A stretch of DNA of 64,000 nt from Desulfatiglandales bacterium (GTDB lineage: Bacteria > Desulfobacterota > DSM-4660 > Desulfatiglandales > Desulfatiglandaceae): positions 4,800,001 to 4,864,000 of the forward strand of contig OY759599.1 of assembly GCA_963662465.1 (NCBI GenBank), read 5' to 3'. Both the position numbers and the translations under genes were made by a program. Each line of letters opens with the position of its first letter. The first letter of the stretch is position 1. Below, one piece after another: positions 60-21,705 of the stretch. The notes below the pieces were generated by a model. That model ran no database searches and was not told the DNA's origin. It was given only the letters and a program-made list of their open reading frames with translations.

Positions 60-1214
60 TTAAAAAGGAGAACCTTCAACGAACGTCCCTACATCCCTGT
101 GCATTTCAAACAGGGCACCCCAGTTCAAAGCCGCAGTGTCCGATGCCGCATACTGGTAGCTGTATCCCAACCATTCTGACGCCAAGGGAACCGCTGAATA
201 GTACCAGGGATAATCCGCATCAGCAACCGGAGCCTGCTTTGTATCGAAAGACCACCTGACATCAATCCACCCACCAACATTACCCCAGGCAGCAGGCAGA
301 ATTCTTCTTACGTTGACAAAATTCAACTCATACGGGAGATTAATCTGGCCGGAAAGCCCATTTTCTTCCTCGTCATAAATGTTGACGACCACCAGATTCG
401 TATCCGGCTCGAACAAACCATTCTGTTCCCATTCACCCCAGTTCCCGCTACTCCAGATAAAGAAAAAGGTCTCTGCGGAGTCGTTCAGCAGAAAATAACG
501 AGGAAGCAGGCGGAAGTACGCCGGGATGGGGAAATCCATGTCGGCATGCGGATTATAGCCTTGCTCACGCGCTTTACTGGTTGCGTACGAAAAAGCGGTA
601 AACGCTTCATAGTCGGTAAACTCCGGATAAGGCAGCTGACCAATTGGCGGAAGCCATTCTGTTCCCAAAAAAGAATTCTGCTCAACATGCCAACCTACCA
701 GCGCATGGGGGCCATTGACCCCTACCGGAGCATATTCCCTTGCGGGCAGGACAACACCAGAAGCCAAACCGTTGGCCAGATTAATGACATACTGGTGTCC
801 AATCAGGTTATCCGCAGTCGGATTTGAGTTATCATACTCGACATAACCCATATAATGATCATTGTCCCCGTCGAGATCCAGGTCCACTTCGAGCGCCGCC
901 AGGCCATCCGGACTGACATTTGTCAACAGCGCACTAATGCTGACGGATACCACATCATATGGCGTATACCCGGTGTTTCCGTTCGCACGGTGAATCGACT
1001 TTTTATCACGAATGGTCCAATGAACAGAACCGCTGAAACCTTCCACTTCCGTAATCGTCACGAGTGTGTTCAGCGTCCCGTCAAAGCTCACGAGAAAAAA
1101 CGGCTGCAGGATGTTCGTTCCCGGAACAGCATCCGGCGTCCCCACCAGAGCCATCGACGGCGTCGCAACAAACAGCGCTGCCAAAATTGAAAGTGCAATA
1201 AAAACCTTTTTCAT
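60..1214 (-). CDS. Secreted protein, candidate S-layer/major surface protein
   Basis: Sec signal peptide (MKKVFIALSILAALFVATPSMA); acidic, aromatic-rich, Cys-free mature part; strong RBS AAGGAGG; perfect promoter; lies at the end of the T2SS/glycan cluster. Confidence 0.6.
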   Translation of the reverse strand: MKKVFIALSILAALFVATPSMALVGTPDAVPGTNILQPFFLVSFDGTLNTLVTITEVEGFSGSVHWTIRDKKSIHRANGNTGYTPYDVVSVSISALLTNVSPDGLAALEVDLDLDGDNDHYMGYVEYDNSNPTADNLIGHQYVINLANGLASGVVLPAREYAPVGVNGPHALVGWHVEQNSFLGTEWLPPIGQLPYPEFTDYEAFTAFSYATSKAREQGYNPHADMDFPIPAYFRLLPRYFLLNDSAETFFFIWSSGNWGEWEQNGLFEPDTNLVVVNIYDEEENGLSGQINLPYELNFVNVRRILPAAWGNVGGWIDVRWSFDTKQAPVADADYPWYYSAVPLASEWLGYSYQYAASDTAALNWGALFEMHRDVGTFVEGSPF

Positions 1215-1419
1215 GCTCTTTTCCTCCTTAAAAAATTATATTCTGAAAACTTAGTAATGTTAACACCCAAATCAACATCCCAATCCCGCTCTATTTGCTT
1301 CGTTTACCACCTCCTTAAACTAAAGATTTCGCATTCCCTCTTGATTTCGACTAAAACCCAACCTCTTTCCCTTAACAAAAAACCTCCAAGCATCCTTCAC
1401 ACATCAAATGGTCAAGCTC

Positions 1420-1447
1420 ATTATAGTGAAGCAACCAGGGTTGTCAA
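1420..1447 (-). promoter_or_regulatory. Consensus sigma70 promoter of the surface-protein gene
   Basis: Minus strand TTGACA (1447-1442), 16-nt spacer, TATAAT (1425-1420). Confidence 0.8.
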
Positions 1448-1717
1448 GCCCTTTTTCGCTTGATGTTTATATATTCATATAATTTTCATTTTTTCTGAAT
1501 ATCAACCTTATCACCTTAAACTGAATCGTTAGACCAACCCCCTAAACTAACGCTTGAACAATTGATATGCCACCACAGCAAACCCTATTTAATGCGATTT
1601 TCCCACACGCACGATACCGGCAAACGGGCTCAGGAAAAAACAACACTCGTAAATTAAAATTACTTCCACGACGAATACTGCTATTAGCGTATTGACACAT
1701 GCATGTCAAGACTTTTT

Positions 1718-3727
1718 CTAAAACTCCGATATAAGGATTGAAAAAAAACATATTTTTTTGAAAAAACTTTCAAATTATTGATTTCATGCTCTATTTTCAC
1801 CTTGCCTCGCAAAGGGGGTTTTAAGCCCCTCAAAAGCCTCTTGAGGCAGTAAACACCTGAAGCACCGAGACGGGAGATGCGAGGGGCAACTCAAACGCCT
1901 CCAGACCTATAAAAATTTGTCACGTAACTAGCTGGAATCATTAGTAAAATCAGACATTGCCAACTTGACATCCGCCCCGCTTTATGTTTGAGTTGTCGAC
2001 ATGACTTCGCGGGAACAATTACAAGACACCCTCTGTAGACGACTTTTCTGGCACACCGCCGAGCGGGATGACGGAAAGGTTGCAGACTACCTTTTCCATC
2101 GCCACGAAATGGATGTGGTTTATGCCATGGATGAGGCCACCTTGTTCGATTCCTTCTTCAGATATTTGCAAGACATCGAAGTATTTCCTCTATTAGAACG
2201 TCTTGATCCAAAAAATCAACGAAGAAAAAATGTCCCTTTTTCCCAGATACTCCTTGTCTTCTTAATGAAAGTCGTCGGCTCCATCAAAAAGATGGATCAA
2301 ATGACCGACCTGTTGCTCACCGATGAATTGCTTATGAGCATGTGCGGCTTCAATGCCTATCAGGTAAAAAATGGCAGTTGTAAACGGGGCGAAAAACTCC
2401 GCAAAACATTCATTCCTGAATTCAGAGGCGCTTTGTGCGTCGATACGGTTGCCAACCACATTGTCACCATTTCCCTCAAACGAATTGAGAATTTATTTAA
2501 CCGTTGCATTCAACGATTAGCCGACCAAGGCGTATTCCCAAAAAAAATCCATGCTGCCTGTGATTGCACCTTGTATGAAACCACCCGTCAATTCAAGGGA
2601 TGTGGTTCCGTAACTTATAAACGCAAGGTGAAAGTTCGCGGGCGCCGGAAAAATGCTGAACTCAAAGAAGTCAAAGTCACCCTTTATGGCTGGAAGGTAT
2701 GGGCCATCTATGAAATCAAGACAGGCATCCCTCTAGCCATCAAGATTGATACAATTGAGAAACCAGACAATCGCCATGTTCTTGCCGTGTTGAAACAGGC
2801 TAAAGAAAATGTAAAACCATTCAGCACTATTGACTCTCTGGTGCTTGATCGCGGGTTCCTCGACGGCAAGCTTCTCTTCGACATTGACCTGCAGGGGATT
2901 GAATTTGTCATCCCCTTAAAAAGAAATATGGATGCCGCCAAAGATGCACGGCAGTTAGCGTTAGACTGTGCGGACCTCCCACCGGTGACCCGGGAAGTTC
3001 ACGTGACGCATGGTTATGGCAAAAAAAAGTACACTGAAAAAGTGCTCACCACATTGGTGGCGGTGCCGGATCTTCTGACATGTGATTGGTTTAATCCAGA
3101 GGGCTCCAAAGCCAATACCGCCAAAAAAGATTATGAACCGATCCCTCTGAATGCGGTGGTTGTCAAAAAATGGGACAACAACCTTCCTCCTCCCGAAAAG
3201 CAGGTTGTATTCATAACGAACATCGACGTGAAAGATCCCTTTGTAACTTTTGACCGCTACGATGATCGCAGCCTTATGGAAAATAAACTGTTCCGAGAGG
3301 TCAAGCAAAACTGGCATTTTGAGTACCCACCTAAGAAAACCAAAGAAGGTGTCCATATTCAAGTTTATATGACCATGGCCATGAAAGCGCTTACCACTGC
3401 CTTTTTGAAATGGCAGGAAGATCAATTAAAACTAGAAGCACTCGGTAAGCCAAGTACCTGGCAGATGTATCGACGAAAGCTTAAAGTTCTCAACCGTAAC
3501 AAATTGATTGTCTTTGCAAACGAATACTTCGGCATCTTTCCTTCCCATGAGGTTTTCATGCTCGCCAATGTTCCTGTTCGTGACACGGAAAAAGAACTCA
3601 ATATTACCCGCGACCAAGTCTACGCCAAATATACTGACTGCCAGTTGATCGAAAAATCCTGAAAACCGGGCCCCTGGCTTTCTTCGGACCAACAGTTCCT
3701 CGCTCAATTCTTATATCGGAGTTTTAG
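1718..3727 (+). mobile_element. Complete insertion sequence (IS4-like DDE family), 2010 bp
   Basis: 24-bp TIRs CTAAAACTCCGATATAAGGATTGA (1718-1741) and TCAATTCTTATATCGGAGTTTTAG (3704-3727), 1 mismatch; 9-bp TSD AGACTTTTT at 1709-1717 and 3728-3736. Confidence 0.93.
2001..3662 (+). CDS. DDE transposase
   Basis: DCT, LDRGF and YxxRxxxE...K (YDDRSLMENKLFREVK) motifs; lies between the TIRs. Confidence 0.92.
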   Translation: MTSREQLQDTLCRRLFWHTAERDDGKVADYLFHRHEMDVVYAMDEATLFDSFFRYLQDIEVFPLLERLDPKNQRRKNVPFSQILLVFLMKVVGSIKKMDQMTDLLLTDELLMSMCGFNAYQVKNGSCKRGEKLRKTFIPEFRGALCVDTVANHIVTISLKRIENLFNRCIQRLADQGVFPKKIHAACDCTLYETTRQFKGCGSVTYKRKVKVRGRRKNAELKEVKVTLYGWKVWAIYEIKTGIPLAIKIDTIEKPDNRHVLAVLKQAKENVKPFSTIDSLVLDRGFLDGKLLFDIDLQGIEFVIPLKRNMDAAKDARQLALDCADLPPVTREVHVTHGYGKKKYTEKVLTTLVAVPDLLTCDWFNPEGSKANTAKKDYEPIPLNAVVVKKWDNNLPPPEKQVVFITNIDVKDPFVTFDRYDDRSLMENKLFREVKQNWHFEYPPKKTKEGVHIQVYMTMAMKALTTAFLKWQEDQLKLEALGKPSTWQMYRRKLKVLNRNKLIVFANEYFGIFPSHEVFMLANVPVRDTEKELNITRDQVYAKYTDCQLIEKS

Positions 3728-3737
3728 AGACTTTTTT

Positions 3738-3912: not shown

Positions 3913-3970
3913 AGACTTTTTTATCCGGCGTTATCCCCACAAGGGTTCTATGGAAAGTAAAAAAGTCGCA

Positions 3971-5605: not shown

Positions 5606-6703
5606 CTATTCTACCACCCAAGTCATGTTTAGAAAACGCCTCTCAAACCCCTTCGGTCTTCCGATTCGTCCGTAATATTGCCTCTTTGCCAGCATATCCC
5701 AGCAGTGCTTTGAAAATTCAAATTGCCCGCCGGCGCCAAAACGGCCTGCGGCAGGCATGAAATCAGGATTAGGACTCCACTCAAAAAGCCATTCCTTGTG
5801 TAAATAGGCTGGAATTTCAAGTGAAAAAGCGCTCGAAAACCGATGGCGGAAAATAGCATTTTTTTCAGGTTTAGGCGGTACGAAACATGAAACGGCCCTT
5901 GCCAATCCACTCTCCCAGGTTCTGCCATGTTTTTTCAGAAAAAGCGCCATGGACGTAAACATAAGACGCATTTTATGCTCCTGATCCTCTATACCGCACT
6001 GATCATAATAATGAATCGCTCTAGCCCTCGGTTCTATCAGCAAATCAAACCCTGCTCGTCTCAAGCGAAGAAAAAGGTCCGTATCTTCGAAATAAAGGAA
6101 AAATCGGGGATCAAAAAGCCCACCCGCTTTACGCACGCAAGTCCATTTCAGAAGCGACAAACCCCCAGACAAGTTACGGACCCGCAAGGGCCCTCTGGAA
6201 CGCCATACTCTGATAGAATACCTTCGCCAAAACAGATCCAGCAGCTGGGTCAGATAATCAAGGCCCCGTCGGTTCAAAACGGACTGAAATTCAACCAAAC
6301 CAGGCGAACAGGGAGGGGGGAAATGGTATTGAAGCAACTCATCCCAGAATATCTGAGGGGAAACAGCAGCTGTGGCATTGCACGAAAAAAGGGTTTGCTG
6401 AAGACGTTTAAGGCAGCCGGGAAGAACCCTGGCGTCCGGATTAATAAGAAGAATGGCGTCGCCCTGCCACGATTCAGCAGCCTGATTGCAGGCGCGGCCG
6501 AATCCCATATTTTCGGCATTGACCATTAAATTCACTGACGCAGGAAGGCCACGACGCAGTATTTTCACTTCTTCCGGTGTCTCGCTGTTGTCCACAACCA
6601 CAACATCAACCGGTCCCAGAGACTCGGAATCCATCACTGACTGAACCGCCTGAAGGGTCAACGGAGCACTCTTGTAGTTAACAACGACTGCCAGTGTTTT
6701 CAA
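5606..6703 (-). CDS. Glycosyltransferase family 2
   Basis: VVVNY, VVDNS, NMGFGRACN, LINPD, FFLYFEDTD motifs. Confidence 0.9.
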   Translation of the reverse strand: MKTLAVVVNYKSAPLTLQAVQSVMDSESLGPVDVVVVDNSETPEEVKILRRGLPASVNLMVNAENMGFGRACNQAAESWQGDAILLINPDARVLPGCLKRLQQTLFSCNATAAVSPQIFWDELLQYHFPPPCSPGLVEFQSVLNRRGLDYLTQLLDLFWRRYSIRVWRSRGPLRVRNLSGGLSLLKWTCVRKAGGLFDPRFFLYFEDTDLFLRLRRAGFDLLIEPRARAIHYYDQCGIEDQEHKMRLMFTSMALFLKKHGRTWESGLARAVSCFVPPKPEKNAIFRHRFSSAFSLEIPAYLHKEWLFEWSPNPDFMPAAGRFGAGGQFEFSKHCWDMLAKRQYYGRIGRPKGFERRFLNMTWVVE

Positions 6704-6712: not shown

Positions 6713-7900
6713 TTACGCAGGAATCTTCCAGGAATGCGCCATCCACATCATGCCAATCTCAGGATGTTCACTTTCGATAACAAACGGGTCGAGGCTCATC
6801 TGGTGGATCGTTCTAAGGGCGTATTCATCCCCCACACGGGCCCTAACCACATAGTTTCCGCCCAAAATCGGAATGGACGGAATGATAAGTTCCACCTCCT
6901 GCTCACCGAAAAACAGAATCGGATCCAAGCCGGACATCTTTGTTGTCGTCTCAAAAACCTGACTGCCATCCGTAAATCCGAAACCCACGGCCAGATGCCC
7001 TCGAATGGGGGGGCCAATTCTTTTTGTTTTAACCTGAACAATAAGCATCTGAAATTGATGGATATCCGCGACCGGTTCTTTCTTTTCGTCCAGAAGGCGC
7101 ACATCTTCAATCAGGATATCGGGCATTTGTGAATCAGACGGCGCCGCTGACGCCCTGGCGGGGGCAAAAATTTCAGGATCTTGTTCAAGATAGGCCAAAT
7201 AAGCTGAAACAACGGAAGATGTTTTCCCAGAACGGCACATTCGGCCGTTTTTCAACCATATAGCCCGGGAACACAATTCGTTGATCATATACATACTGTG
7301 GGTGCAGATAATGATCGTCTTGTTGGCCTTTCTGAAATTCATCATCCGATCCACGCATTTTTGTTGAAATCGCTGATCCCCGACACTGAGTGCCTCATCA
7401 ATAATCAGGACCTGCGGATCCACACTCGTTGCAATAGAGAAAGCAAGACGAACATACATCCCAGATGAATAGGTCTTGACCGGCCGGTCGATTGCATTCT
7501 CCAATTCAGAAAACGCAATAATCGCTTTTTCACGGTCCCTGATCTCTTTTTCTTTCAACCCTAAAAGCGCTGCATTGAGATAGATGTTCTGCCGACCGCT
7601 GAACTCGGGGTGAAATCCCGACCCCAGCTCCAAAAGTGCGGCCATCCTGCCCCTTTTCACCATCCGCCCGGAAGTTGGATGAGCGGTACCAGCCAATATT
7701 TTCAGCAGGGTGGATTTTCCCGCGCCATTTTCGCCGATAATCCCCAGTGTGCCACCCTCAGGCACTTCAAAAGAAACATCCGTCAGGGCTTCTACCAGAT
7801 CATGGCAGGGCTTTCGAAGAATCGCTTCCTTGAGACGGTCAAAGGGTCTTAGATACACCTGGTAATGTTTTGTCAGGCCTTCAGCCTCAATAGCATTCAA
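6713..7900 (-). CDS. wzt: Polysaccharide ABC transporter ATPase with C-terminal carbohydrate-binding domain
   Basis: GENGAGKST, YSSGMYVRLAF, LIIDEALSVGD; ~150-aa C-terminal Wzt_C-like extension. Confidence 0.93.
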   Translation of the reverse strand: MNAIEAEGLTKHYQVYLRPFDRLKEAILRKPCHDLVEALTDVSFEVPEGGTLGIIGENGAGKSTLLKILAGTAHPTSGRMVKRGRMAALLELGSGFHPEFSGRQNIYLNAALLGLKEKEIRDREKAIIAFSELENAIDRPVKTYSSGMYVRLAFSIATSVDPQVLIIDEALSVGDQRFQQKCVDRMMNFRKANKTIIICTHSMYMINELCSRAIWLKNGRMCRSGKTSSVVSAYLAYLEQDPEIFAPARASAAPSDSQMPDILIEDVRLLDEKKEPVADIHQFQMLIVQVKTKRIGPPIRGHLAVGFGFTDGSQVFETTTKMSGLDPILFFGEQEVELIIPSIPILGGNYVVRARVGDEYALRTIHQMSLDPFVIESEHPEIGMMWMAHSWKIPA

Positions 7901-7934: not shown

Positions 7935-8753
7935 CTACAAAACGTCCGCAAAGGCATGTTTTGAGCGTTCAAAAAAAAGAACGCTCAAAACAAAACATAA
8001 CAGCGTCAAACCCATGGTATAAGCGAGCATGCCAAAGGAAATGAAATGATGCAGCAACACTTGATGATACAGCTCAATAAAAGGATATATGGGATTTATC
8101 TTGATGACCCACCTCAGTTTTTCCGGCACCATGGACAACGGATAGATGATGGGTGTCAGAAAAAACCACAACGACAGGACCGTTCCGATAAAATGTTTAA
8201 TATCCCTCAGAAACACTGATAAACTGGCAATCAGGCATACCATGCCCAGTGTAAACACCATATGGACGGCCACTACCAGGGGCAACCACATCCACGCCAT
8301 GTGAAAATAGCCTTTGAAAATCAAATACACCAAAAACATTATAAAACCGAGACCGTTAAGACAGAACGGAACTATAACCCCTGCCATGGGCAGAATTTCC
8401 AGGGGAAACGCCACCTTTGTAATGAGGTTGGCCCGACCCAGGAAAGCGTCTGTAGCGCTGCTCAAAGCCTCTGAAAAAGCGGTCCATGGCAGGAGCCCGG
8501 TCAAAAAATATACAGCGAAACTGTCAGTCCCCGTTTCCATGGGTTTCATCCTGATCTTCAAAACCAGGGAGAATACAAAAATATAGATGAGCAAATTGGC
8601 CAAGGGCGTCAGAAGACTCCACAAAAAGCCCCCAATAGATCCAGCAAAACGCCCTTTGATTTCGTTCCGAACGAATCCCCAGAACAGGGTTTGATAATGA
8701 AACGGAATTTGCAGCCAGCGTTTAATTATTATAAAAATATTCATGGATAACAT
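7935..8753 (-). CDS. wzm: Polysaccharide ABC transporter permease
   Basis: GFLWSLLTP, KVAFP, RDIKH, FFLTPIIYP, FADVL; multi-TM; next to wzt. Confidence 0.93.
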   Translation of the reverse strand: MLSMNIFIIIKRWLQIPFHYQTLFWGFVRNEIKGRFAGSIGGFLWSLLTPLANLLIYIFVFSLVLKIRMKPMETGTDSFAVYFLTGLLPWTAFSEALSSATDAFLGRANLITKVAFPLEILPMAGVIVPFCLNGLGFIMFLVYLIFKGYFHMAWMWLPLVVAVHMVFTLGMVCLIASLSVFLRDIKHFIGTVLSLWFFLTPIIYPLSMVPEKLRWVIKINPIYPFIELYHQVLLHHFISFGMLAYTMGLTLLCFVLSVLFFERSKHAFADVL

Positions 8754-8808: not shown

Positions 8809-11079
8809 TTATGGCTGGGGGTAAAACTGCTTCATCACGCTCTGCACTTTTTGTTTAAACTCGTTGGTCACCGCTTCCACATCGTCCATGTCGTCCACCA
8901 CCCGGGGCGTAATCAGAACAATCAGTTCAATTTTCTCCGTTTCTTTTCCCCAACTCCCTGTCAAATACCGTATAACGGGGGTATCAATCAAACAGGGAAG
9001 CCCCGTACTCGTCTCCTTTTCCTTGTCCCTGATCAACCCACCGATGGCAATGGTCTGACCGTGCCCCACGGTGAGGGTGGTTTTGACCACCCGCTTAGAA
9101 AAAACGGGGTATTCATTCCCCTCTTTTCCCACAGCCATATTACCGTCGTAATTGCTCACCTCCTCGCTGATATCCATGGTCACCAGTCCCCGCTCGTTGA
9201 TATGGGGCGTAACAGACAGGATCACGCCTGTGTCCCGGTATTCGATGGTGGTTTCACTGAGGGTCGTACCGCTTGAAACGTTTGTTGTACCGCTTGCCAG
9301 GGGAATTTCCCGGGATACATCGATCTTGGCCTCCTGGTTGTCGGAAGCCAGCACATGGGGAGATGAAATGACGTTCAGCTTTCCCTTTGTTGCCAGGGCG
9401 TTCAGTTCCACAAACCATTTGTCGGTGACGCCAATGGAATATTTGAGCCCTCCCGCTCCCACTGTGGCCATAAAACTGGCATTGCTCAAAGCAGCCCCCT
9501 GCCCCAGGGCATATTCCACCCCGAACGAGGTGGAAGAATCCAGGGTAATTTCGGCGATGGTGGCCTCAATCAGCACCTGGCGAGGCATGATATCGATTTG
9601 TTTCAATATCCCGTTAATAATTCTGTAATCCGCCGGGGTTGCCTCGATAATAAGCGCATTTCTGATCTCGTCCGGCGTGATGGTCACATCACCCATCAGG
9701 GTACCGGACCCTTCCCCGGAGGCGCCGGAAGCTTTTTTCCGCTCCGTGGTTTTCCGGGTGGATTCCCCGGCCTTAGCCGCAGCTTTTTCAGCTTTCTTTT
9801 CCGCCATCTTCGCCATTGAAAAGGGATTTCCTTTGACATCGCTTGAGCCGCCGGCTTTCTTTTCCGCTTGTTTCTGGGTTTCCTTGCCGGTCAGCACGTT
9901 GTTTAATAACGTTGCCAGCTCGTTGGCGGAACCGTTTTTGACAAAATAGACAAAAATTCTGGCGGCGACCGTTTCATCCACAATGTCTATTTGACGTACC
10001 AATTCTTCAATTTTATCGAAAACATCGGGTATCGTACTCACCGCCAGGAGTGTATTCAGGCGCTCCAGCGCAATGAATTTAACGATGCCGGTAGAGTCCT
10101 TGGCGTAGGAAGTGGTAAATTCCTTCATGATTTCAGAAACTTCCTTCGCTTCAAGGTACTCCAGGGGGTAAAAACGATAATACACCCGGTCCAGCACATT
10201 GATATCAAAGGTTCCCACCAGCTGCAGGATTTTCAAGATATTGGCGCCTTTATCCACCACCACCAGGGTATTGGTGGACGCACTCACAACGATGGTTCCA
10301 CCGGAAGAGAGAAAGGGGGTTAGCAGTTTTGTCATCTCCTCCACAGACATATATTTGAGGGGGATAATCTGAATAATAACCCTATCCATGGGAGGAACTC
10401 CTTTTTGCCCCAGCGTAAACAGCGCGTCCATCGGCATTCTGGGAGTGTCTTTCATGGGGATGATTTTATAAATCTTCCCCTCCTTCATAACCGCCAAGCC
10501 GTTAAGTTCCAGAATCTGTGAGAAAACCGGAAAAAGGTCGGTTTTCTTCAGTTTACGAGCCGTGTGAATGGTCACTTTTCCTTGAATTCCGGGGTCAACG
10601 ATATAATTGATTTCGAGAAGCTCAGCCATAGTTTTGATGACTTCATAAAGGTCCGCATCGTCAAAGTTGAAAATAATCTGTCCTTCTTCTTCGGGTCCAC
10701 TCCCTGCATTGGAAAGTGAAGCGGCTCTTGATATGTTCCGCTTTGCAGCGGCCTTTTTTCCGAATACTTTGGTGGACCTATATCGGTCCCTGGAAGATTC
10801 CGTCGACGCTCTTCCAGAGACCGGGGAAGGCGCTTTTCCAATCACTGGCGACGCCGTTTTCGTCTGCTCTTCCGAGGGCGTCGCAGATCCTTTTGCACCC
10901 TGATGCGCGTTTTCATAATTTTTTGCGGCATCCTCGATAATATCTGCTTCAAGGGGCGCCTTACCGGATGCCTTCCCCCGGTCGCCCATCGTCTCGCTGC
11001 CCGCACAACCGGCCAAAAAAACTGCCGCCATGATCATGACGATGATAAACAGGTTCGTTTTGATAAAGCATTTTCGCAT
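8809..11079 (-). CDS. gspD: T2SS secretin with lipoprotein signal
   Basis: FNFDDADL N0 start, QVLIEATIAEI, DTGVILSVTP, ELIVLITP; lipobox FLAGC; start moved from 11214 to ATG 11079. Confidence 0.93.
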   Translation of the reverse strand: MRKCFIKTNLFIIVMIMAAVFLAGCAGSETMGDRGKASGKAPLEADIIEDAAKNYENAHQGAKGSATPSEEQTKTASPVIGKAPSPVSGRASTESSRDRYRSTKVFGKKAAAKRNISRAASLSNAGSGPEEEGQIIFNFDDADLYEVIKTMAELLEINYIVDPGIQGKVTIHTARKLKKTDLFPVFSQILELNGLAVMKEGKIYKIIPMKDTPRMPMDALFTLGQKGVPPMDRVIIQIIPLKYMSVEEMTKLLTPFLSSGGTIVVSASTNTLVVVDKGANILKILQLVGTFDINVLDRVYYRFYPLEYLEAKEVSEIMKEFTTSYAKDSTGIVKFIALERLNTLLAVSTIPDVFDKIEELVRQIDIVDETVAARIFVYFVKNGSANELATLLNNVLTGKETQKQAEKKAGGSSDVKGNPFSMAKMAEKKAEKAAAKAGESTRKTTERKKASGASGEGSGTLMGDVTITPDEIRNALIIEATPADYRIINGILKQIDIMPRQVLIEATIAEITLDSSTSFGVEYALGQGAALSNASFMATVGAGGLKYSIGVTDKWFVELNALATKGKLNVISSPHVLASDNQEAKIDVSREIPLASGTTNVSSGTTLSETTIEYRDTGVILSVTPHINERGLVTMDISEEVSNYDGNMAVGKEGNEYPVFSKRVVKTTLTVGHGQTIAIGGLIRDKEKETSTGLPCLIDTPVIRYLTGSWGKETEKIELIVLITPRVVDDMDDVEAVTNEFKQKVQSVMKQFYPQP

Positions 11080-11219
11080 ACGATTACAATACCTTAGCTT
11101 CCTTGGGGCGCATTTGGAAAAAAACGGCCAATTGGATTGCCGGAAGTCTCTATTCCCCAAAAAAAACGCCCTAAATTCAAAAGTCTTTAAGTGTTGAATT
11201 CCCATACCCGTCAAAACCG

Positions 11220-12631: not shown

Positions 12632-13996
12632 TCATTTAAGGCTCAGACCCACTCGAAACCTTTCCTTGCCGTCGCGGACCCTGGTAATGGCGGAGAGAAA
12701 AGCCACACCGCCAAACATGGGAGACGCTTCCAGAAGCGGAATGAGTTCCGAAGCCGATGTCGCCTCCCCTTGTATCTGAACACCCTTTTCCGAAAAATCG
12801 AACCGATTGACCCAGGCATCCTCGGGGATTCTTTCAGACAATTCTTTCAACACGCTCAGGACGGACGGACTGCCCCGGCGAAGGGTATTCAGATAATTGA
12901 TGCGATCCTCAATTTCCTTTTTTTCTGTTTTGACCCGCTCAATTTTTTTCAGCTGAGACCCCAACCTTTGGATTTCCCCCTCCAGTCGATCCAGTGCCCA
13001 TTGACGTTGGAGAAAGACGCCTCCCCCCCAGGCAAGCCCCCCCAAAAGGATCAGGAACGACAACCCGAAGATGGCATAAAATTTGAATTTACTGGGTTTT
13101 TTCCGCAGCGCAGACGGCAGCAGATTGATATTGATGGAAGTCTTCCGAATCCCTTTCAAGGCAAGGCCGTAGGCTGTCATCACGGTACCGGAAGGAATTT
13201 GCGCCTTGGAGAGATCCGGCAAACGAATATTGATGCCATCTATCCCGGAAAGAGACTCTAGCAAGGGCACATCCGTTTCCATTCCGGAGAATACCGTATC
13301 GATAGGGTCATCGCCCTCTCCAAAGTCTTGGCACATTCTTGAAAGCGCCGCCGGAATGACCGCCGGCAGGTCGTCGTTTCTTGACAAGCGCCTGGAATAC
13401 CGGAGCATGCCGTCTTTGACAAGCCCCAATTCAAGGTCGCCGCGACGCATATGGATAAATGAGATCACATTGCCTTTTTCGCCACGGCGAAAAAAATAGT
13501 TTGCCAGCGCCGTTGAGCTGATCTCAACACCGGAAATGCCGACGTCCAATCGTCTCGCAAGGGCCAGAATGGGCGACAGGGTCTGTTTTTTCACCACCAC
13601 AAGAAGCAATTGCAAGCGTCCGACGGCTTTATCCTCTGAAATAATCTGGAAATCGAAATATACATCCTCCGGGTTGAACGGCACATGCTTTTCCAATTCA
13701 TAGCCCAGACTTTCTCGGAGATTCTCCTTAACGGCAATGGGAAATTCCAGATATCTCAGGATGGCAGTATTGCGCGGGATGCCTAAAAACATAGAGGTGG
13801 GGGAAATCCGGTTCTCCCGTAGAAACCCTTGGATCAATTCAAAAATGCCCTTGGCCTTTTCCTCATCCACGACACCTTCTTCAAGTGGATAAGCTGCATG
13901 CGCCACCAGTTGAACGTCCCTGGATGAGGCCTTCAGGCAGACCAGGCAAAGCGCCCCTTCCTGAATGTCAACGCCGAGGCTTGTTTGAAAAAGCAT
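12632..13996 (-). CDS. gspL: T2SS protein L (PilM/PilN-like)
   Basis: Actin-like N-terminus (LGVDI), INLLP, TM, LSERIPEDAWV PilN-like domain. Confidence 0.82.
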   Translation of the reverse strand: MLFQTSLGVDIQEGALCLVCLKASSRDVQLVAHAAYPLEEGVVDEEKAKGIFELIQGFLRENRISPTSMFLGIPRNTAILRYLEFPIAVKENLRESLGYELEKHVPFNPEDVYFDFQIISEDKAVGRLQLLLVVVKKQTLSPILALARRLDVGISGVEISSTALANYFFRRGEKGNVISFIHMRRGDLELGLVKDGMLRYSRRLSRNDDLPAVIPAALSRMCQDFGEGDDPIDTVFSGMETDVPLLESLSGIDGINIRLPDLSKAQIPSGTVMTAYGLALKGIRKTSININLLPSALRKKPSKFKFYAIFGLSFLILLGGLAWGGGVFLQRQWALDRLEGEIQRLGSQLKKIERVKTEKKEIEDRINYLNTLRRGSPSVLSVLKELSERIPEDAWVNRFDFSEKGVQIQGEATSASELIPLLEASPMFGGVAFLSAITRVRDGKERFRVGLSLK

Positions 13997-14017: not shown

Positions 14018-15067
14018 TCATTCGTTTGGTTTTGCGGATGGACCTGCCGGCAATGTCGCACGGTCGTTCCACTGAACCACGCGGTAACCCTTTTTGATGG
14101 TGCGATTGATCTCCACCACGGCCTCTACGCCTTGCCGCGTTCTGCTGTCGGCAATCTTTCCCTCGGACACAATCTGATAATAGGCACTGGGGGTCAGGGT
14201 AATATAGCGAGAGATGGCCCCATATACTTCGGCGCCCAGAAGCGTGGCAACTTCTCCCAAAGATTTGAAATCCGCCTCTTTTCTGAAGACCATAATCGAT
14301 TGGGCCAGGTCGCCGGTCATTTGCGGCAAAGAAAGCAACATGGCCCTGGATGCGGCATTAATGCAGATTTTGGACCCGCCAGCCTTGGTGGACCCCCTTC
14401 TGACTTTCCCCCGCCTGGAACCGCTGTCCTGAAATGCCGTCACCATACGGTTGAGGCCGCCATAAAATATTTCCGGTGTGATCCCCCGGACCATGAGCAG
14501 CTCTTCTATGGCGTCAAAATTACCATTTTTGCAGTCATAGGGCTTCGGAAGAGATTGATAATAGTCATTCTCCGCGCCGTTCAACCCATGAAGATCGTTT
14601 TCGTCCCGCCAGTCGATAATGGAATCAACAATAATGCTTTTTTCCTGTTCCTCAAGGTCAAATCCGTTCAACATCATCTTCAAAAGAGATTCATCCGCGT
14701 CGTTAAGATTGATCTTCCCCGCTTCATTTCCGATGCGCACTAAAAACTGCCCCTGTGCAAAAGGAACCGGCGGGATATCGGTATTCATCCGCCAGCGCGG
14801 CGATGTTTCAGCCGCCGCTTCATCGTCATTTCCAAGCAGTTTATTTTTCTTTGGAGAAAATTCATTTCGGATCAATTCGGTTACGGCACGGTTAAAACCC
14901 GCCAGGGCAATGTAATAGGCCTCGGTTTGTTCCTTGAAATTGCGGACCATATTGACCTCAGTCCGCATGGCAAAACAAAATTCCGTTGCAATGGCAGAGA
15001 GGAGGATCAACACCCACAGCACCATAAAAAGCGCCATCCCCTTCTCATGGGTGAACTCTTTTTTCAT
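14018..15067 (-). CDS. gspK: T2SS minor pseudopilin K
   Basis: GMALFMVLW, GKINLN, IIDWRD, EELLMVRGIT, INAAS. Confidence 0.93.
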   Translation of the reverse strand: MKKEFTHEKGMALFMVLWVLILLSAIATEFCFAMRTEVNMVRNFKEQTEAYYIALAGFNRAVTELIRNEFSPKKNKLLGNDDEAAAETSPRWRMNTDIPPVPFAQGQFLVRIGNEAGKINLNDADESLLKMMLNGFDLEEQEKSIIVDSIIDWRDENDLHGLNGAENDYYQSLPKPYDCKNGNFDAIEELLMVRGITPEIFYGGLNRMVTAFQDSGSRRGKVRRGSTKAGGSKICINAASRAMLLSLPQMTGDLAQSIMVFRKEADFKSLGEVATLLGAEVYGAISRYITLTPSAYYQIVSEGKIADSRTRQGVEAVVEINRTIKKGYRVVQWNDRATLPAGPSAKPNE

Positions 15068-15077: not shown

Positions 15078-15743
15078 TTACTCTTTCCGGCACCGAATCG
15101 GCACGATCACGTCAATGGGCGCCGCGTCTTTACTTTGCTGGAGAACAATTTTCACCGCAAGCGGCATCCCTTCATCTTCAGGAGAATGCCAAGCGGTTTG
15201 CCAGTTCGTTTTGCTTTCCTCTTGCGTCTCTTTCAGAAATTCAAACTGAAAATCTTGAATGCCTGAAATCAAGGTAACGAAATCTTCGTCTTTCCAACCC
15301 TCAAGGTCTTCCTCTTTCAGGAAACCCGCATCTTTCTCGTAGAGCATGAGCCGCATTTTCCCTTTCCCGCCGGTCTCCTGAACCATGTATTTCACGAAAA
15401 CCACGCCGGTAAGCGCTCCCGGCACAATGGGGTTGCGGGAAACAAATGCCATGGTCTTTTCGGAACCGCTAAAAACCAGGGGTTCATCGCCCACTTTTAT
15501 CTCATGGATGAAGGCGCTTGCAATCTGTTGCGCCATGAGCCCTAAAACGGCCCGCTGCCGCTGCTCGATGTCCGTATCTTTTTCGCCCTTTTCCCACGCC
15601 CGCGTGCCAATCCTGAGAGCGCCGAAAATAATCAGCAGAATGACCCCCAAAATGGTTAGCGACAGCATGAGTTCCAAAAGCGTAAAGCCTGAAGAACCGG
15701 AAGTTAAATATGGGATACGGGATATGAAACGTTGCCGGGCCAT
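15078..15743 (-). CDS. gspJ: T2SS minor pseudopilin J
   Basis: GFTLLE prepilin site, C-terminal PLAV; gene order. Confidence 0.8.
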   Translation of the reverse strand: MARQRFISRIPYLTSGSSGFTLLELMLSLTILGVILLIIFGALRIGTRAWEKGEKDTDIEQRQRAVLGLMAQQIASAFIHEIKVGDEPLVFSGSEKTMAFVSRNPIVPGALTGVVFVKYMVQETGGKGKMRLMLYEKDAGFLKEEDLEGWKDEDFVTLISGIQDFQFEFLKETQEESKTNWQTAWHSPEDEGMPLAVKIVLQQSKDAAPIDVIVPIRCRKE

Positions 15744-15761: not shown

Positions 15762-16187
15762 CTACCCCTCCTTTTTCTTTTCAACCGCTTTCAGGGTGTT
15801 AATGGTAAAGTTTTTTTCCTTTTCGCCTTCACGCCAGGCAATGTTAACCTTGATGTTCAGCAAATCAAAGGGTAGGTTTTCTTCCGCCTCTTCAGGGACG
15901 ATTCGGGTGATAACGGTTCGCCACTGATAAGCATCCTCAAATTCCCCTTGGGTTTCTCCTTCCAAGTAATCCGGGGAAAGCTGCATTTCCGCCATTTTTT
16001 CCCTGGCATGAAATATGCCCCGCGTGTATTGTTCCGACAATTTGCGTGATTTAAGGCCGCCTGAAAAAAGCTGTAGAATGACGACCAGAGAAATGGCCAG
16101 GACGGAAGTGGCCACAAGAATTTCAATGAGTGCAAACCCTCCGGTTATCCCGGGCGACCTTGTCCCCGCCATCTGATCCGGCTTCAT
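15762..16187 (-). CDS. gspI: T2SS minor pseudopilin I
   Basis: GFALIE prepilin site; size and order. Confidence 0.8.
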   Translation of the reverse strand: MKPDQMAGTRSPGITGGFALIEILVATSVLAISLVVILQLFSGGLKSRKLSEQYTRGIFHAREKMAEMQLSPDYLEGETQGEFEDAYQWRTVITRIVPEEAEENLPFDLLNIKVNIAWREGEKEKNFTINTLKAVEKKKEG

Positions 16188-16684
16188 GAGGCCTCCACAC
16201 GCACCGTGCCGGTAATAAAGTCGATTTTGATAGCGAATTCATGCTTGCGATTATTTTCTAAAAGGACGGTTCCCCCGCTGCTGCAGCCGCTGGGCATAAA
16301 GACAACGGCAAAAAAACGAGAATCGCTTTCACTGCCGTCAAAGGCCCGTGCGTCCTTAAATTTCACATCCCCCGGCAAGGTATAGCGCTTTATCCGATTT
16401 TCGCCCGGTTTCAAAGGGGCGGTTTCATCTTCCTTGTCCGTGGAATTTATATCGGACTTGATGGTCATCCGATTTTGATTGAGATCCAAAAGGGCAACGT
16501 AGGGCACACTTTCCGTTATGGCCCGACTCCTGGCGTATCTCAGGGAGGCCGCCACTCTTTTTGAAGCGGTTTTTAATGCCACATTGCTGAGGGTGCCGGC
16601 CACCTTCGGAACCACAAATGCCGAAAAGACACTGATGATCACCAGCACCACCAACAACTCAATCAGTGAAAATCCCTTTTTCAT
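16184..16684 (-). CDS. gspH: T2SS minor pseudopilin H
   Basis: GFSLIE, LRYARSRA, F.PSG.SSGG, ITG.V. Confidence 0.85.
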   Translation of the reverse strand: MKKGFSLIELLVVLVIISVFSAFVVPKVAGTLSNVALKTASKRVAASLRYARSRAITESVPYVALLDLNQNRMTIKSDINSTDKEDETAPLKPGENRIKRYTLPGDVKFKDARAFDGSESDSRFFAVVFMPSGCSSGGTVLLENNRKHEFAIKIDFITGTVRVEAS

Positions 16685-16735
16685 CCCAAAGCGGGCGATG
16701 CCCGCAACCCCAAGGTATTTAAAACCCGCAATTCT

Positions 16736-17179
16736 CTAAGAACCGGCGTCTTCCGCATCCCCGTCCCGATTGGAAATATCCTTATCTTCGCCCTCTCCGC
16801 CTTCGGTTCCGTTAGCCCCCAGAGAAATCATCTCAACTTCGCCGTTGTCGGCTCGCCTGTACATATAAGGATGACCCCATGGATCCTTGGGCAATGCCTT
16901 TGACAGATAGGGCCCGTCCCATTTTTCTTCATCGCCGGGGTTGGTTCTGAGGGCCTGAAGACCCTGCTCCGTTGTGGGATATTTGCCCACATCCAGCCGG
17001 TAGGTATCCAGCGCGGTTTCAAAGAGGGCCATCTGCGATCGGGCCGCGTTCTGCTTTGACTTGCCCACCTTTCCAAACATGCGGGGTCCCACCAAGGCCG
17101 CCAGAAGCCCCATAATAACCATGACAATCAATAATTCAATCAGACTGAACCCCATTTCATTTTTTTTTCGCTTCTTCAT
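16736..17179 (-). CDS. gspG: T2SS major pseudopilin
   Basis: GFSLIELL, ALDTYRLDVGKYPTTEQGL, WDGPYL, DPWG; RBS AAGGAG supports a start at 17179/17182. Confidence 0.96.
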   Translation of the reverse strand: MKKRKKNEMGFSLIELLIVMVIMGLLAALVGPRMFGKVGKSKQNAARSQMALFETALDTYRLDVGKYPTTEQGLQALRTNPGDEEKWDGPYLSKALPKDPWGHPYMYRRADNGEVEMISLGANGTEGGEGEDKDISNRDGDAEDAGS

Positions 17180-17201
17180 CATAACTCCTTTCGCGTTCCC
17201 G

Positions 17202-18431
17202 TCAAAAAGGCATTTCATTCATACTGAATACGGCCATGAGCATGGAAACCACCACAAACCCCACGACGAGTCCCATGAGCAGGATCATGGTCGGTTCCAA
17301 CAGGCTGATGAGCCGTTTGACCATATTCCGAACCATTTTTTCGTAACTTTCCGCCACTCGCAAAAGCATGCGGTCCAGTTTTCCCGTCTCTTCTCCCACA
17401 GTGATCATCTGAATGGCAAGGGGCGGAAAAATCCCCGTATCCCGCAACGGTTTTGACAAGCGGTCCCCTTCCTTCACCCGGGCATAGACGTTTTCCATTG
17501 CCTCTGAAATGACCCTGTTCCCCACAATGTCTTTGACCAGCATAAGGGCCTGCAAAATAGGAACGCCGCTTTTTGTCAATGTTCCGAGGGTTCTGGCAAA
17601 CCGGGCCACCTCAATTTTCTTGACGAGATCCCCCACCACGGGAAATTTCATTTTTTTGCGGTCGAATTTCAAACGTCCCGCAGGCGTTTTCAGATACTTT
17701 CTCAAGAAAAAATAGGCCGCTCCCAATACGGCCAGAATGGCCCACCAGTAGGATTGCAGCAGCTCGCTAATCCCCAGCAAAAGCTGGGTGCTGAGGGGAA
17801 TGGCTTGGCCCATGTCCGAGAAAATAATCGAGAATTTGGGAATAACAAAGGTCAGGAGTATAATAATGGACAACCCTCCCACGCCCACCAGAAAAATAGG
17901 GTACACCATGGCTGATTTGATATAATCTTTAAGTTCCTGGGAGCTTTCCATGAACTCCCCCAACCGGCTCAGAACCGCCTCCAAAACGCCTCCGGCCTCT
18001 CCGGCCCGCACCATGCTGACGTAAAATGAGGTGAAAGCCTTTGGGTGCTTTGCCAGGGCATCCGATAGATATCCGCCGCCCTGAACAGTTTTAAGGATAT
18101 CGCCCACCACCATTTCGAATGGTTTTTTTTCAGCGGATTCAATCAACAGGGAAAGCGCCCGATCAACCGGCAGGCCGGCTTCCAGCAAGGTGGCAAGATC
18201 CTGGGTGAAAACCATAACGTCTTTGGAAGAGACGCCATTCAGGAGACCGAGAAACTGCTCGCCAAGATTCGATGCCAACCCCTTGCCGTTCCCTTTGGCC
18301 TGAATGATCCGCATGGGAATCAGACCAAGGGCCTGCAGTTGGGCAACCGCCTTCTTTTCTTCATCCGCTTCAAGGGTTCCGGTAACAATTTTGCCGGCGC
18401 TGTCAGCGGCTTTGTATGAGTATGTGGTCAT
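17202..18431 (-). CDS. gspF: T2SS inner membrane platform protein
   Basis: AGEAGGVL, AMVYP, GEETGKL, LLEP. Confidence 0.95.
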   Translation of the reverse strand: MTTYSYKAADSAGKIVTGTLEADEEKKAVAQLQALGLIPMRIIQAKGNGKGLASNLGEQFLGLLNGVSSKDVMVFTQDLATLLEAGLPVDRALSLLIESAEKKPFEMVVGDILKTVQGGGYLSDALAKHPKAFTSFYVSMVRAGEAGGVLEAVLSRLGEFMESSQELKDYIKSAMVYPIFLVGVGGLSIIILLTFVIPKFSIIFSDMGQAIPLSTQLLLGISELLQSYWWAILAVLGAAYFFLRKYLKTPAGRLKFDRKKMKFPVVGDLVKKIEVARFARTLGTLTKSGVPILQALMLVKDIVGNRVISEAMENVYARVKEGDRLSKPLRDTGIFPPLAIQMITVGEETGKLDRMLLRVAESYEKMVRNMVKRLISLLEPTMILLMGLVVGFVVVSMLMAVFSMNEMPF

Positions 18432-18433
18432 GC

Positions 18434-19951
18434 TTAGTTTTCAAGGGTGGCTTTCAATATCTCGGGAATGGTGGTGACCCCCGCCTTCACTTTTCGCCAT
18501 CCGTCCTGCCGGAGCGTCAACATTCCCGATTTTACGGCCACTTCCTTGATTTGCTCGGCGCTCGATTTCCGGATGATCTCTTTTCGAATCCGCCCGGTCA
18601 CGGGCAGGTATTCGAAAATAGCGGTTCTGCCTTTGAACCCTGTGTATCGGCACGCTTCGCAGCCCTTGCCCTCGAAAAACCCTATTTCATTTGCTTCATC
18701 AGAACTTATTTCCATGGCCTTTAGAAGCCTTTCTTCCGGTTCAATCGGTCGTTTGCATTCAGGACAAATGACCCTGACAAGCCGCTGGGCCAGGACCCCC
18801 AGGAGAGTCGAACTCAGGAGGAAACTCTCCACGCCCATGTCCAAAAGCCTTGTAATGGCCCCCGCCGCATCGTTGGTATGGAGCGTACTGAACAGCAAAT
18901 GCCCGGTCAAAGCGGATTGAATGGCAATCTCGGCGGTTTCCCGGTCCCGAATCTCCCCAACCAGGATAATATCCGGATCCTGCCGCACAATGGACCGAAG
19001 TCCACTGGCAAAGGACATGCCGATTTTCTGGTTCACCTGAATCTGGTTCACGCCGTTGAGCTGGTATTCAACCGGCTCCTCCAGGGTTATAATCTTGTTT
19101 TGTGGTGAATTGATTTTGGCAAGGGTGGTGTAGAGGGTGGATGTTTTACCGCTCCCCGTGGGGCCGGTCACCAGAATCATGCCGTAAGGCTGGGTGGTCA
19201 GTTGCTTATACTGCACCAGTACATTGTCGGGAAATCCCAGCTTATCAAGATCCAGGATCAGGGTGTCTCGATCCAGTATCCGCATGACCAGGCTTTCTCC
19301 GAAAAGGGTGGGGATGGTTGAAATCCTGAAATCAATTTCCTTCTCCGAAATCCGCAACTTGATTCTGCCGTCCTGGGGAAGTCTTCTCTCCGCAATATCC
19401 AGCTTGGCCATGATTTTAACCCTGCTGATAATGGCGGCCTGCAGACGATGGGGAGGCGATTCCACATCATGAAGGACCCCATCTATTCGGTATCGCGCTT
19501 TAAATTCATTTTCAAAGGGCTCAAAATGGATATCGCTGGCTTTCTGTTCCACCGCATTAAAAATCAACCGGTTCACCAACCGGATGATGGGGGCTTCCGA
19601 CGCCAGATCCCTTAAGTGATCCTCATCCTCAACATCACCGGCGGAAATGTCGTAAATATCCTTTCCCGCTTCCTCTATGATGGTTTCAAGGGATTGACTG
19701 CCCGCCCCGTACAATCGTTCAACGGTGTCAAGGATGTCGCCTTCTTTTCCCTGACAGACCCGAATGTCCAAACCGTATGTGACCTTCAAAGCGTCAATGG
19801 TATAAAAATCTTCCGGATCGACCATGGCGATTTCAAGAAAGTCATCCCCCATGGCCAGTGGAACGAACAGGGATTCCCGCATCATCTTGTCGGAAAGATT
19901 GTCTAATACCACCGGCTCTTTAGGATAATCTTTAAAAGTGATAGGGGTCAT
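18434..19951 (-). CDS. gspE: T2SS ATPase
   Basis: ASDIH, RRLPQDG, GPTGSGKT, RQDPDIILVGEIRD, TGHL, STLHTN, tetracysteine motif. Confidence 0.96.
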   Translation of the reverse strand: MTPITFKDYPKEPVVLDNLSDKMMRESLFVPLAMGDDFLEIAMVDPEDFYTIDALKVTYGLDIRVCQGKEGDILDTVERLYGAGSQSLETIIEEAGKDIYDISAGDVEDEDHLRDLASEAPIIRLVNRLIFNAVEQKASDIHFEPFENEFKARYRIDGVLHDVESPPHRLQAAIISRVKIMAKLDIAERRLPQDGRIKLRISEKEIDFRISTIPTLFGESLVMRILDRDTLILDLDKLGFPDNVLVQYKQLTTQPYGMILVTGPTGSGKTSTLYTTLAKINSPQNKIITLEEPVEYQLNGVNQIQVNQKIGMSFASGLRSIVRQDPDIILVGEIRDRETAEIAIQSALTGHLLFSTLHTNDAAGAITRLLDMGVESFLLSSTLLGVLAQRLVRVICPECKRPIEPEERLLKAMEISSDEANEIGFFEGKGCEACRYTGFKGRTAIFEYLPVTGRIRKEIIRKSSAEQIKEVAVKSGMLTLRQDGWRKVKAGVTTIPEILKATLEN

Positions 19952-20030
19952 GCTAATTTCACGTCTTCATCAATGCACATCGAAAAAATCCTTCTCCCTC
20001 CCAGGCCCGGACATCACTGAAAATCCCCTG

Positions 20031-20990
20031 CTATTCCTTAAAATAGTCAATGACGCTCTGGATGATGCTTTCCAGATCATGGGACGGCTCAAACCCGATG
20101 ATGTTTTTCAGTTTGCTGATATTGGGACATCGCCTTTCCATGTCCTCAAAACCAGGACCGTAAGCTTTTTCGTAGGACATATAGTCAATTTCAGACTGAC
20201 TCCCCGTCATCTCTTTGACTTTGAGCGCCAGATCGTTAATGGTCACTTCTTCATTGTTGCCCACATTGAAGACATCGCCTTCCGCCGCGGGTTCATCCAT
20301 CAACCGGGTGATGGCCTCCACCACATCGTTGACATGGGTAAAACTTCGACTCTGGGTTCCATCCCCATAAACGGTGATGGGCTTTCCGAACAAGGCGCTC
20401 TGAACAAAAGTGGGCAAAACCATGCCATACTGTCCGGTTTGCCTGGGACCTACGGTGTTAAACAATCGACCGATCAATATGGGCAGTTTTTTTTCATCAA
20501 AGTAAGCGAGGGCTTGAAATTCATCCAGTGTTTTTGAGCAGGCATAGGCCCATCGACGCTTTTTGACCGTCCCCATGACCCGGTTGTCGTCCTCCGACAA
20601 ATCGTGCGCCACATGCTTGCCGTAAATCTCAGAAGTGGACGCGATAAAGACCTTTTTCTTGAATCGATTGGCCAGTCTCAATACCACTTCAGTCCCTTTG
20701 ACGTTGGTATCCAGCGTCTCCACCGGATGGTCCATGATATTCCTGACACCCACCGCAGCCGCCAGGTGGTATATCTGATCCACCTTAAAAATCAGCTCGT
20801 TCATAACGGATTCATTTAAAATGGTGTCAATGACCAGATGCACCCGATCATGGCCCTGTATCTTCGAGATGTTGGCCAGTTTTCCGGTCCATAAATTGTC
20901 AATAATAAATACCTCGTTCCCATTTTTCAGCAAATGCTCCGCCAAATGCGAACCGATAAAACCGGCGCCCCCTGTGATTAAAATCTTCAT
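20031..20990 (-). CDS. NAD-dependent NDP-sugar epimerase/dehydratase
   Basis: GGAGFIGS, STSEIYG, YACSK, RLFNTVGPRQ; RBS GGAGG before ATG 20990. Confidence 0.92.
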   Translation of the reverse strand: MKILITGGAGFIGSHLAEHLLKNGNEVFIIDNLWTGKLANISKIQGHDRVHLVIDTILNESVMNELIFKVDQIYHLAAAVGVRNIMDHPVETLDTNVKGTEVVLRLANRFKKKVFIASTSEIYGKHVAHDLSEDDNRVMGTVKKRRWAYACSKTLDEFQALAYFDEKKLPILIGRLFNTVGPRQTGQYGMVLPTFVQSALFGKPITVYGDGTQSRSFTHVNDVVEAITRLMDEPAAEGDVFNVGNNEEVTINDLALKVKEMTGSQSEIDYMSYEKAYGPGFEDMERRCPNISKLKNIIGFEPSHDLESIIQSVIDYFKE

Positions 20991-21141
20991 ATCATCCTCC
21001 GTCATTCCCCGGCCTTAGTTCGGACACACAAAAGCCCGAAACGCCATCCATTACAGCTCCGCCCCTTCGGTCACAGGCGATGAACCGCTTATATGTTTAA
21101 TTTAACTGCAAAAAACATGACCCTAGCCGTCAGGGGATAAG

Positions 21142-21705
21142 CTATTCCGCAATCCTCTCAAGGGACCAGCCTTCAATTTCCACCTCCAGGGATCTATGCA
21201 ACAGTTCAACGGATACCACGACCTGATCGGTTTTGTTCTTGTGTCGAACATAAAAACCTTCCAAACCCTTGAGAGGCCCCTCCATGATCATCACGCGGTC
21301 GCCTTTCCGCATGTAGGTGCGGTTTTGCACTGTTCGGTCAGTGCCGTCCAAGATCATCAAAGAAGAGATCTCGTGATCATCGGCGGGAACGGGTTTTCCT
21401 TTGAAAGCGACCATCCGAACCACACCAACCGTTTGGATAATGCGATAGTATTCCTCGGGTGCAAGGGCCGACCGGACAAAAACATAACCCGGAATCAGGG
21501 GCGCCAATATCTTTTTCCGTCGGTCTTTTCGACGGCTCATCACCTCAATTCGCGGAAGAAAAGCCTCAAGGGATTTTCCGCAAAGCCCGGCATGGACTTT
21601 TTGCTCAAAACGGCTTCGCGTATGCAGCGCCCACCATCTTGCAGACGCCGCAATTGAATCCGTCATGGCTTCAGTTTCTAAAATAACCTTTCCGCTCCTG
21701 TTCAC
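21142..21705 (-). CDS. NusG-paralog transcription antiterminator (UpxY/RfaH type)
   Basis: WWALHTRSRFE NGN start, PLIPGYVFV, GDRVMIMEGPLKGLEG KOW; heads the surface operon. Confidence 0.9.
   Translation of the reverse strand: MNRSGKVILETEAMTDSIAASARWWALHTRSRFEQKVHAGLCGKSLEAFLPRIEVMSRRKDRRKKILAPLIPGYVFVRSALAPEEYYRIIQTVGVVRMVAFKGKPVPADDHEISSLMILDGTDRTVQNRTYMRKGDRVMIMEGPLKGLEGFYVRHKNKTDQVVVSVELLHRSLEVEIEGWSLERIAE

Follow-up and report, generated by a model that had tools for sequence, protein, structure and literature searches.

The window analysed here is a 64,000-nucleotide stretch of the Desulfatiglandales bacterium assembly GCA_963662465.1 (contig OY759599.1, positions 4,800,001 to 4,864,000), whose first third holds what can be read as a type II secretion system (T2SS), complete and the second of its genome, a Wzm/Wzt exporter with glycosyltransferases and a likely surface-layer (S-layer) subunit of 384 aa, hereafter the cargo (Table 1). 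On the minus strand lie, in order, upxY, an epimerase gene, gspE-F-G-H-I-J-K-L-M-C-D, wzm, wzt, a GT2 gene and a gene for a 521-aa methyltransferase/GNAT-like protein, with intergenic gaps of -17 to 136 nt. The co-oriented block named in the original prediction, made from the letters of this DNA, was recovered with every gene on that strand and in that order, mostly with support from hidden Markov models. The cargo had been placed directly after the block, which holds for strand and order, but an insertion sequence (IS) on the opposite strand intervenes, and the distance from the methyltransferase/GNAT gene to the cargo, IS included, is 2756 nt. The IS (2012 bp, plus strand, single copy) is a recent insertion outside the conserved module, and no homologue of its transposase was found in 10 relative loci; neither it nor two conserved lipoprotein genes just past the left window edge had been remarked upon earlier. 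Beside the IS, at 3737-3913, is a 177-bp stretch flanked by 19-nt inverted repeats (89%), possibly a miniature element.

Table 1. Features of the locus, by position in the window or, for genes left of it, on G000:C1
Feature	Position	Strand	Basis
UpxY-family NusG paralog (predicted antitermination)	21142..21705	-	NF033644 109.6 bits, cut-off 100
NAD-dependent sugar epimerase/dehydratase	20031..21005	-	PF01370, PF16363
gspE	18434..19951	-	TIGR02533 above cut-off
gspF	17202..18431	-	TIGR02120 above cut-off
gspG, major pseudopilin	16736..17218	-	TIGR01710 above cut-off
gspH	16184..16684	-	PF12019 25.5 vs cut-off 21; N-methyl motif
gspI	15762..16187	-	XpsI model E 1e-12, below cut-off
gspJ	15078..15743	-	PF11612 at cut-off; N-methyl motif
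gspK	14018..15067	-	PF21687 above cut-off
gspL, PilM/PilN-type, Xps-like	12632..13996	-	PF11104 (PilM_2) + PF05137 (PilN), above cut-off
gspM, XpsM type	12043..12624	-	NF040576 above cut-off, PF10741
gspC-like	11220..12020	-	GspC_delta E 2.4e-11, below cut-off
gspD, secretin of second (clade-2) T2SS	8809..11214	-	TIGR02517 above cut-off; secretin tree
wzm, ABC-2 permease	7935..8753	-	PF01061 (ABC2_membrane)
wzt with Wzt_C-like C-terminal domain	6713..7900	-	PF00005 (ABC_tran); PF14524 29 bits vs 30.4 cut-off
GT2 glycosyltransferase	5606..6703	-	PF00535
Methyltransferase-like + GNAT-like fusion, 521 aa	3971..5536	-	Sub-threshold Pfam matches only, E 0.002-0.02
IS element, DDE transposase 2001-3662	1717..3728	+	PF01609; 25-nt inverted repeats, 7-bp target duplication
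Perfect sigma70-type promoter of cargo gene	1420..1447	-	TTGACA-16-TATAAT
Conserved Shine-Dalgarno-like AAGGAGGTG in cargo 5' leader	1308..1316	-	Conservation in relatives
Cargo, 384 aa, likely S-layer protein	60..1214	-	Profile comparison, model, sequence features
FG-GAP lipoprotein gene after cargo	4798625-4799917		
152-aa lipoprotein gene after cargo	4798124-4798582		

GspC-M, the secretin GspD and the ATPase GspE are all present, the real start of gspD probably lying ~45 codons downstream of the called one (the ortholog in the closest relative, G010, has 756 aa), and a prepilin peptidase homologue is encoded elsewhere in the genome. Another complete-looking T2SS lies near 6.49-6.51 Mb, with a GspD 25% identical to that of the window; the window system is the genome's second, separate from the other and linked to the likely surface-protein gene. 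A TIGR02517 search returned two GspD classes in 81 family genomes, weaker secretin matches (21 unlisted ones among them) being left out of the classification, and a tree of 69 secretins placed the window GspD in a clade, clade 2, separate from the other class. At a FastTree support of 0.84, clade 2 groups with the Comamonas and alphaproteobacterial Xps-like secretins without being their exclusive sister, and its GspD was assigned to 43 of the 81 genomes, 38 by tree and five by best BLAST match. The exporter following it comprises an ABC-2 permease and an ATPase with a C-terminal glycan-binding domain, the Wzt_C match falling just below its cut-off. Among 40 secretin-centred loci, 34 are clade 2, with wzm directly after gspD in seven and somewhere in the stretch in 11, many contigs being short. 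Many clade-2 relatives (L103, L105, L107, L109, L110, L113, L117) carry after gspD a four-gene set that is absent from the window locus and that reads by sequence as a ligand-binding protein, histidine kinase, response regulator and TonB receptor.

The cargo is an acidic (mature pI 4.2), cysteine-free protein of 40 kDa (calculated 40.2 kDa), and the signal peptide attributed to it earlier is apparent by eye as MKK, a hydrophobic stretch and ...PSMA. No Pfam or NCBIfam family was matched, PDB sequences gave one chance match (E 0.72), a Foldseek search with its model gave nothing above TM 0.2, an Atlas search gave unnamed clusters only, and none of the cargo-family clusters looked up carried a functional name. 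Membership of the Slr4 family was rejected, there being no Pfam Slr4 match and an Atlas listing at only 0.76, which is chance level. The close family comprises 36 matches, and clustering of the wider branch at 50% identity gives 484 clusters, with homologues 45-48% identical in three records named Desulfobacteraceae or Deltaproteobacteria. The AlphaFold model is confident, two-domain and mainly beta, its N-domain showing a modest structural match to TM1070 and ASRT.

A protein near a clade-2 gspD in genome G476 matched a 'cell surface protein' of Comamonas odontotermitis. The latter species is an entry in the npdA species table of PMC10765051, and on account of that table, the gene context given there and ~52% identity of the C. 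odontotermitis protein to Paracidovorax and Acidovorax proteins, the set of 'cell surface proteins' from these three genera was taken as NpdA and is termed NpdA-type. With signal peptides removed, the G476-type and NpdA-type profiles matched at an HH probability of 99.4%, and the window family matched the G476-type at 93.5% over both domains on core columns, scoring 59.3 where the highest null scores in two sets of 30 shuffles were 19.7 and 23.7, but at only 32% on the unfiltered alignment. Compared directly, the window family and NpdA-type aligned in two colinear segments, each weak alone, with a summed score of 47.9 where the null scores peaked at 33.2 and 41.4, and a global profile alignment of the two failed. 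The NpdA-type model shows by eye a strand succession like that of the cargo in both domains, and the two models have a common top VIA match, 1nc7. Profile comparison thus ties the cargo, through a bridging family, to a characterised S-layer family, in keeping with the surface-layer role first proposed for it, and the cargo is likely a distant homologue of NpdA. It also has the features that mark NpdA-type proteins, namely a signal peptide (by eye) and a gsp cluster upstream.

The promoter ahead of the cargo gene matches the consensus at 12 of 12 positions, as originally noted, is one of 12 such sites in the 8.16-Mb genome and sits ~205 nt before the start codon; among nine relatives the site is perfect in seven and matches at 11/12 in an eighth, while nothing reaching 10/12 was found in the ninth. 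The leader contains a strong start-proximal Shine-Dalgarno sequence, AAGGAGGA, and the second such motif listed in Table 1, a possible mRNA-stabilising ribosome site, both conserved in relatives. S-layer genes typically have strong promoters and long leaders. At the other end of the locus, UpxY, a predicted antiterminator, passes its family cut-off, its gene heads the polysaccharide operon, and it lies ahead of the epimerase gene, and both ahead of gspE, in four of the five relative loci extending that far; an ops site, GGCGGTAG, was not found at up to one mismatch in 20287-26958 around upxY. A single transcript from upxY to the cargo was rejected in view of the cargo's own promoter and the IS in front of it, and UpxY therefore need not carry transcription into the cargo. 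The proposal of a NusG paralog serving a long surface operon accordingly stands as regards family and operon position, but not as regards dependence of the cargo on UpxY. A TTGACA-centred motif with a GATGGTGGCG...CCGCCATC-like inverted repeat at 21750-21815, upstream of upxY, is kept in four of five aligned leaders and is a candidate promoter or regulator site. A terminator scan of 1-9000 stayed at chance level (13 vs 11.2), and a codon-usage test was discarded because its score followed base composition, AT-rich glycan genes scoring as high as ribosomal genes and atpD falling at the 15th percentile.

The close cargo-family profile matched in 12 of 61 related genomes, the genome itself included, and 12 cargo-centred neighbourhoods were compared from 10 of the 11 others, comprising 10 main loci and two extra paralogs in G006 that have no T2SS neighbours. 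gspD lies upstream of the cargo on the same contig in eight of the 10 main loci, the remaining two contigs ending earlier, and in seven of these eight no other recognised gene separates gspD from wzm, the G026 stretch having no wzm/wzt. The T2SS and glycan genes, whose separation in relatives would have spoken against the original prediction, are thus linked with the cargo in seven of the eight loci that reach gspD. An FG-GAP lipoprotein gene and one for a lipoprotein of ~150 aa follow the cargo in nine of the 10, the other contig ending. Across the 81 family genomes, cargo-superfamily genes were found in 25 (16 by profile A4, 12 by A5, three by both, each time the same gene), all among the 43 with a clade-2 secretin and in none of the other 38, although kin are not independent in these counts and the three counted genomes that seeded A5, if left out, reduce the tally to 22 of 40. 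Cargos of the window type and those closer to NpdA lie at corresponding places near one secretin clade and for the most part exclude each other. In a phylum-wide draw the cargo family was found in four of 401 genomes, an underestimate because only four candidates were scored per genome.

The pattern of identity in G010 points to a replaced cassette, and less likely to very fast local evolution. Its DNA is 91.6% identical from window position 7936 to 22945, whereas to the left it is alignable only as short 63-68% patches until ~20 kb beyond the window edge. At the protein level GspC-M, D and E are 82-97% identical and Wzm 78%, against 50% for GT2, 36% for the GNAT protein, 36% for the cargo, 44% for the FG-GAP lipoprotein and 39% for the small lipoprotein. 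The last of these, 152 aa in the window genome, is single-copy there, and a 17-sequence profile placed its gene beside the surface protein in Comamonas, Nitratiruptor, G158 and G095, with both cargo types. Since the lipoprotein varies with the cargo and not with the secretin, a cargo partner may be favoured over a pilotin. A 24-kb Nitratiruptor plasmid (L137) carries a T2SS-like set, the lipoprotein, an NpdA-like gene, a peptidyl-prolyl isomerase (PPIase), a PMT-type glycosyltransferase and GtrA, and is possibly a plasmid-borne coat module.

Among known S-layer loci, those of NpdA type (Delftia and Paracidovorax, PMC3110197, PMC10765051; Comamonas locus L136) share with the window the gspEFGHIJKLM(C)D order, a PilN-type GspL, a small lipoprotein beside the surface gene, wzm-wzt, methyltransferases and glycosyltransferases. 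The C. odontotermitis locus reads rfbBDAC-gspEFGHIJKLM-hypothetical gene-gspD-small lipoprotein-surface protein-PPIase-wzm-wzt-methyltransferases-glycosyltransferases, and its gspE, gspG, wzm and wzt find their best match in this genome in the window genes (GspE 478 vs 458 bits). In contrast to these loci, the window cargo is shorter (384 vs ~510 aa) and too divergent from NpdA for a direct match, and its gene, under a promoter of its own, comes after the glycan genes; the locus begins with upxY and the epimerase gene in place of rfbBDAC, includes an FG-GAP lipoprotein gene and lacks one for a PPIase, and the host lies outside the Beta- and Gammaproteobacteria listed in PMC10765051. In Aeromonas, sps-vapA lies within the wb O-antigen cluster as spsEFGHIJKLM-orf2-D followed by wzm/wzt and glycosyltransferases, VapA is tethered by lipopolysaccharide (LPS), and the vapA genes are under an ops/RfaH leader (PMC4413209, PMC4483657). 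The dedicated T2SS beside a polysaccharide ABC transporter that had been likened to Aeromonas does recur here, but the likeness is one of gene layout; vapA follows spsD directly, and NusG-paralog antitermination there uses ops/RfaH, whereas the predicted antiterminator of the window is encoded in cis and no ops site was found near it. The Comamonadaceae NpdA locus is an equally close model. In Pseudoalteromonas tunicata the Slr4 gene, also encoding a Sec signal peptide, is immediately 3' of a T2SS cluster (PMC7821379). Literature searches found no such locus described in deltaproteobacteria and no characterised T2SS-exported S-layer for this group.

From its genes, the block is most likely an S-layer export module. 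Under this explanation UpxY would keep the ~18-kb transcript from upxY to the GNAT gene intact, while a strong promoter of its own and a long leader would yield the cargo in large amounts. The cargo would be exported by Sec, fold in the periplasm and leave the cell via the clade-2 T2SS, whose prepilin peptidase would be supplied from elsewhere in the genome. Its lattice might then rest on an O-polysaccharide-like glycan, by analogy with VapA and with NpdA, whose reassembly requires LPS (PMC3110197); the two lipoproteins could assist export or assembly, and cargo, lipoproteins and glycan genes would be exchanged as a cassette beside a fixed T2SS. The originally proposed deltaproteobacterial module producing both a protein layer and a glycan is thus backed by gene linkage and the NpdA tie, the part of the glycan, as anchor or decoration, being suggested by analogy.

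The universality of the linkage is weakened by G158 and G095, where divergent cargo relatives lie beside the lipoprotein with no T2SS within ~30 kb, and three other explanations were weighed. Because membrane glycosyltransferases neighbour the locus, a live but unlikely alternative, compatible with an S-layer module, is that the cargo is a surface glycoprotein and that Wzm/Wzt or these enzymes glycosylate the protein itself, which would fit the PpgS-like GT2, DUF2304, GT4, TPR membrane and PMT_2 proteins encoded at the locus and the STT3/PglB gene adjoining the G095 cargo relative. The equivalent Aeromonas wzm/wzt, however, make O-antigen (PMC4483657, PMC4413209), and PglB-type N-glycosylation was rejected as a family trait, its sequons occurring in three of 36 close homologues and not in the window cargo. 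It is rather improbable that the cargo is exported by the T2SS as a non-crystalline surface or matrix protein, such as a sugar-binding adhesin or biofilm protein, whose role has diverged from that of NpdA; the best N-domain matches are small beta-sandwiches, paralogs occur alone or within glycan islands and direct similarity to NpdA is weak, yet relatives retain both the strong ribosome sites and a consensus promoter that is almost unique in the genome, and the two cargo types, equivalently placed near one secretin clade, mostly exclude each other. A periplasmic, T2SS-independent hitch-hiker in a variable envelope island, the T2SS having other substrates, is highly improbable: the cargo's own promoter, the IS in front, the relatives without an adjacent T2SS and the two lipoprotein neighbours would suit it, but the cargo is confined to genomes with a clade-2 secretin, and the linkage of T2SS, lipoprotein and cargo appears again in Comamonas and on Nitratiruptor plasmids.

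As the architecture is already known, surprise is limited; the novelty lies in the lineage, the divergent branch to which the cargo belongs, the cis-encoded UpxY, the two lipoproteins and what looks like cassette exchange. A broader proposal, in which an NpdA-like two-domain superfamily (at least 484 clusters at 50% identity in this branch alone) extends to deltaproteobacterial sulfate reducers, the small lipoprotein, hitherto overlooked, has a core function in assembly or anchoring in hosts ranging from Comamonas to Nitratiruptor, and a co-adapted coat cassette is swapped on a fixed T2SS to give strain-level surface switching, is tentative and on the doubtful side. If the S-layer explanation is true, it gives a widespread anaerobe group an identified outermost coat protein, carries NpdA-like layers well beyond Beta- and Gammaproteobacteria and makes the conserved lipoprotein testable in tractable Delftia, and a single T2SS apparently handling cargos 25-45% identical would be informative about T2SS substrate recognition, which is an open question.

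Upstream of upxY, a TPR membrane protein, which we take to be TMTC-like, and the PpgS-like GT2, DUF2304 and GT4 genes occupy 23049-27592; the PpgS-DUF2304-GT4 set is also found beside the G095 cargo relative, there with the STT3/PglB gene, and the TPR protein is 56% identical in G010, its adjoining genes ~95%. tRNA-Pro(CGG) lies at 21987-22063 between pyrE and upxY, and dnaA (27608-28954, above the TIGR00362 cut-off) is 6 kb from upxY, an order kept in G010 and G004. Past the left edge the glycan island extends for at least 30 kb (L001-L002, G000:C1 4760001-4800000) with GT2/GT4, methyltransferase, sulfotransferase-like, PMT_2, GtrA and YdjC genes and further transposases. A second cargo-superfamily member of 355 aa (E 1e-11 to A1) lies among these glycan genes 4.4 kb past the edge, at L002:14553-15620 (G000:C1 4794553-4795620, minus strand), and further members of its subtype are present in G006, G007 and L063, either singly or within glycan islands. 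A second wzm/wzt pair is located at G000:C1 ~7362000-7365000, in another low-GC glycan cluster.
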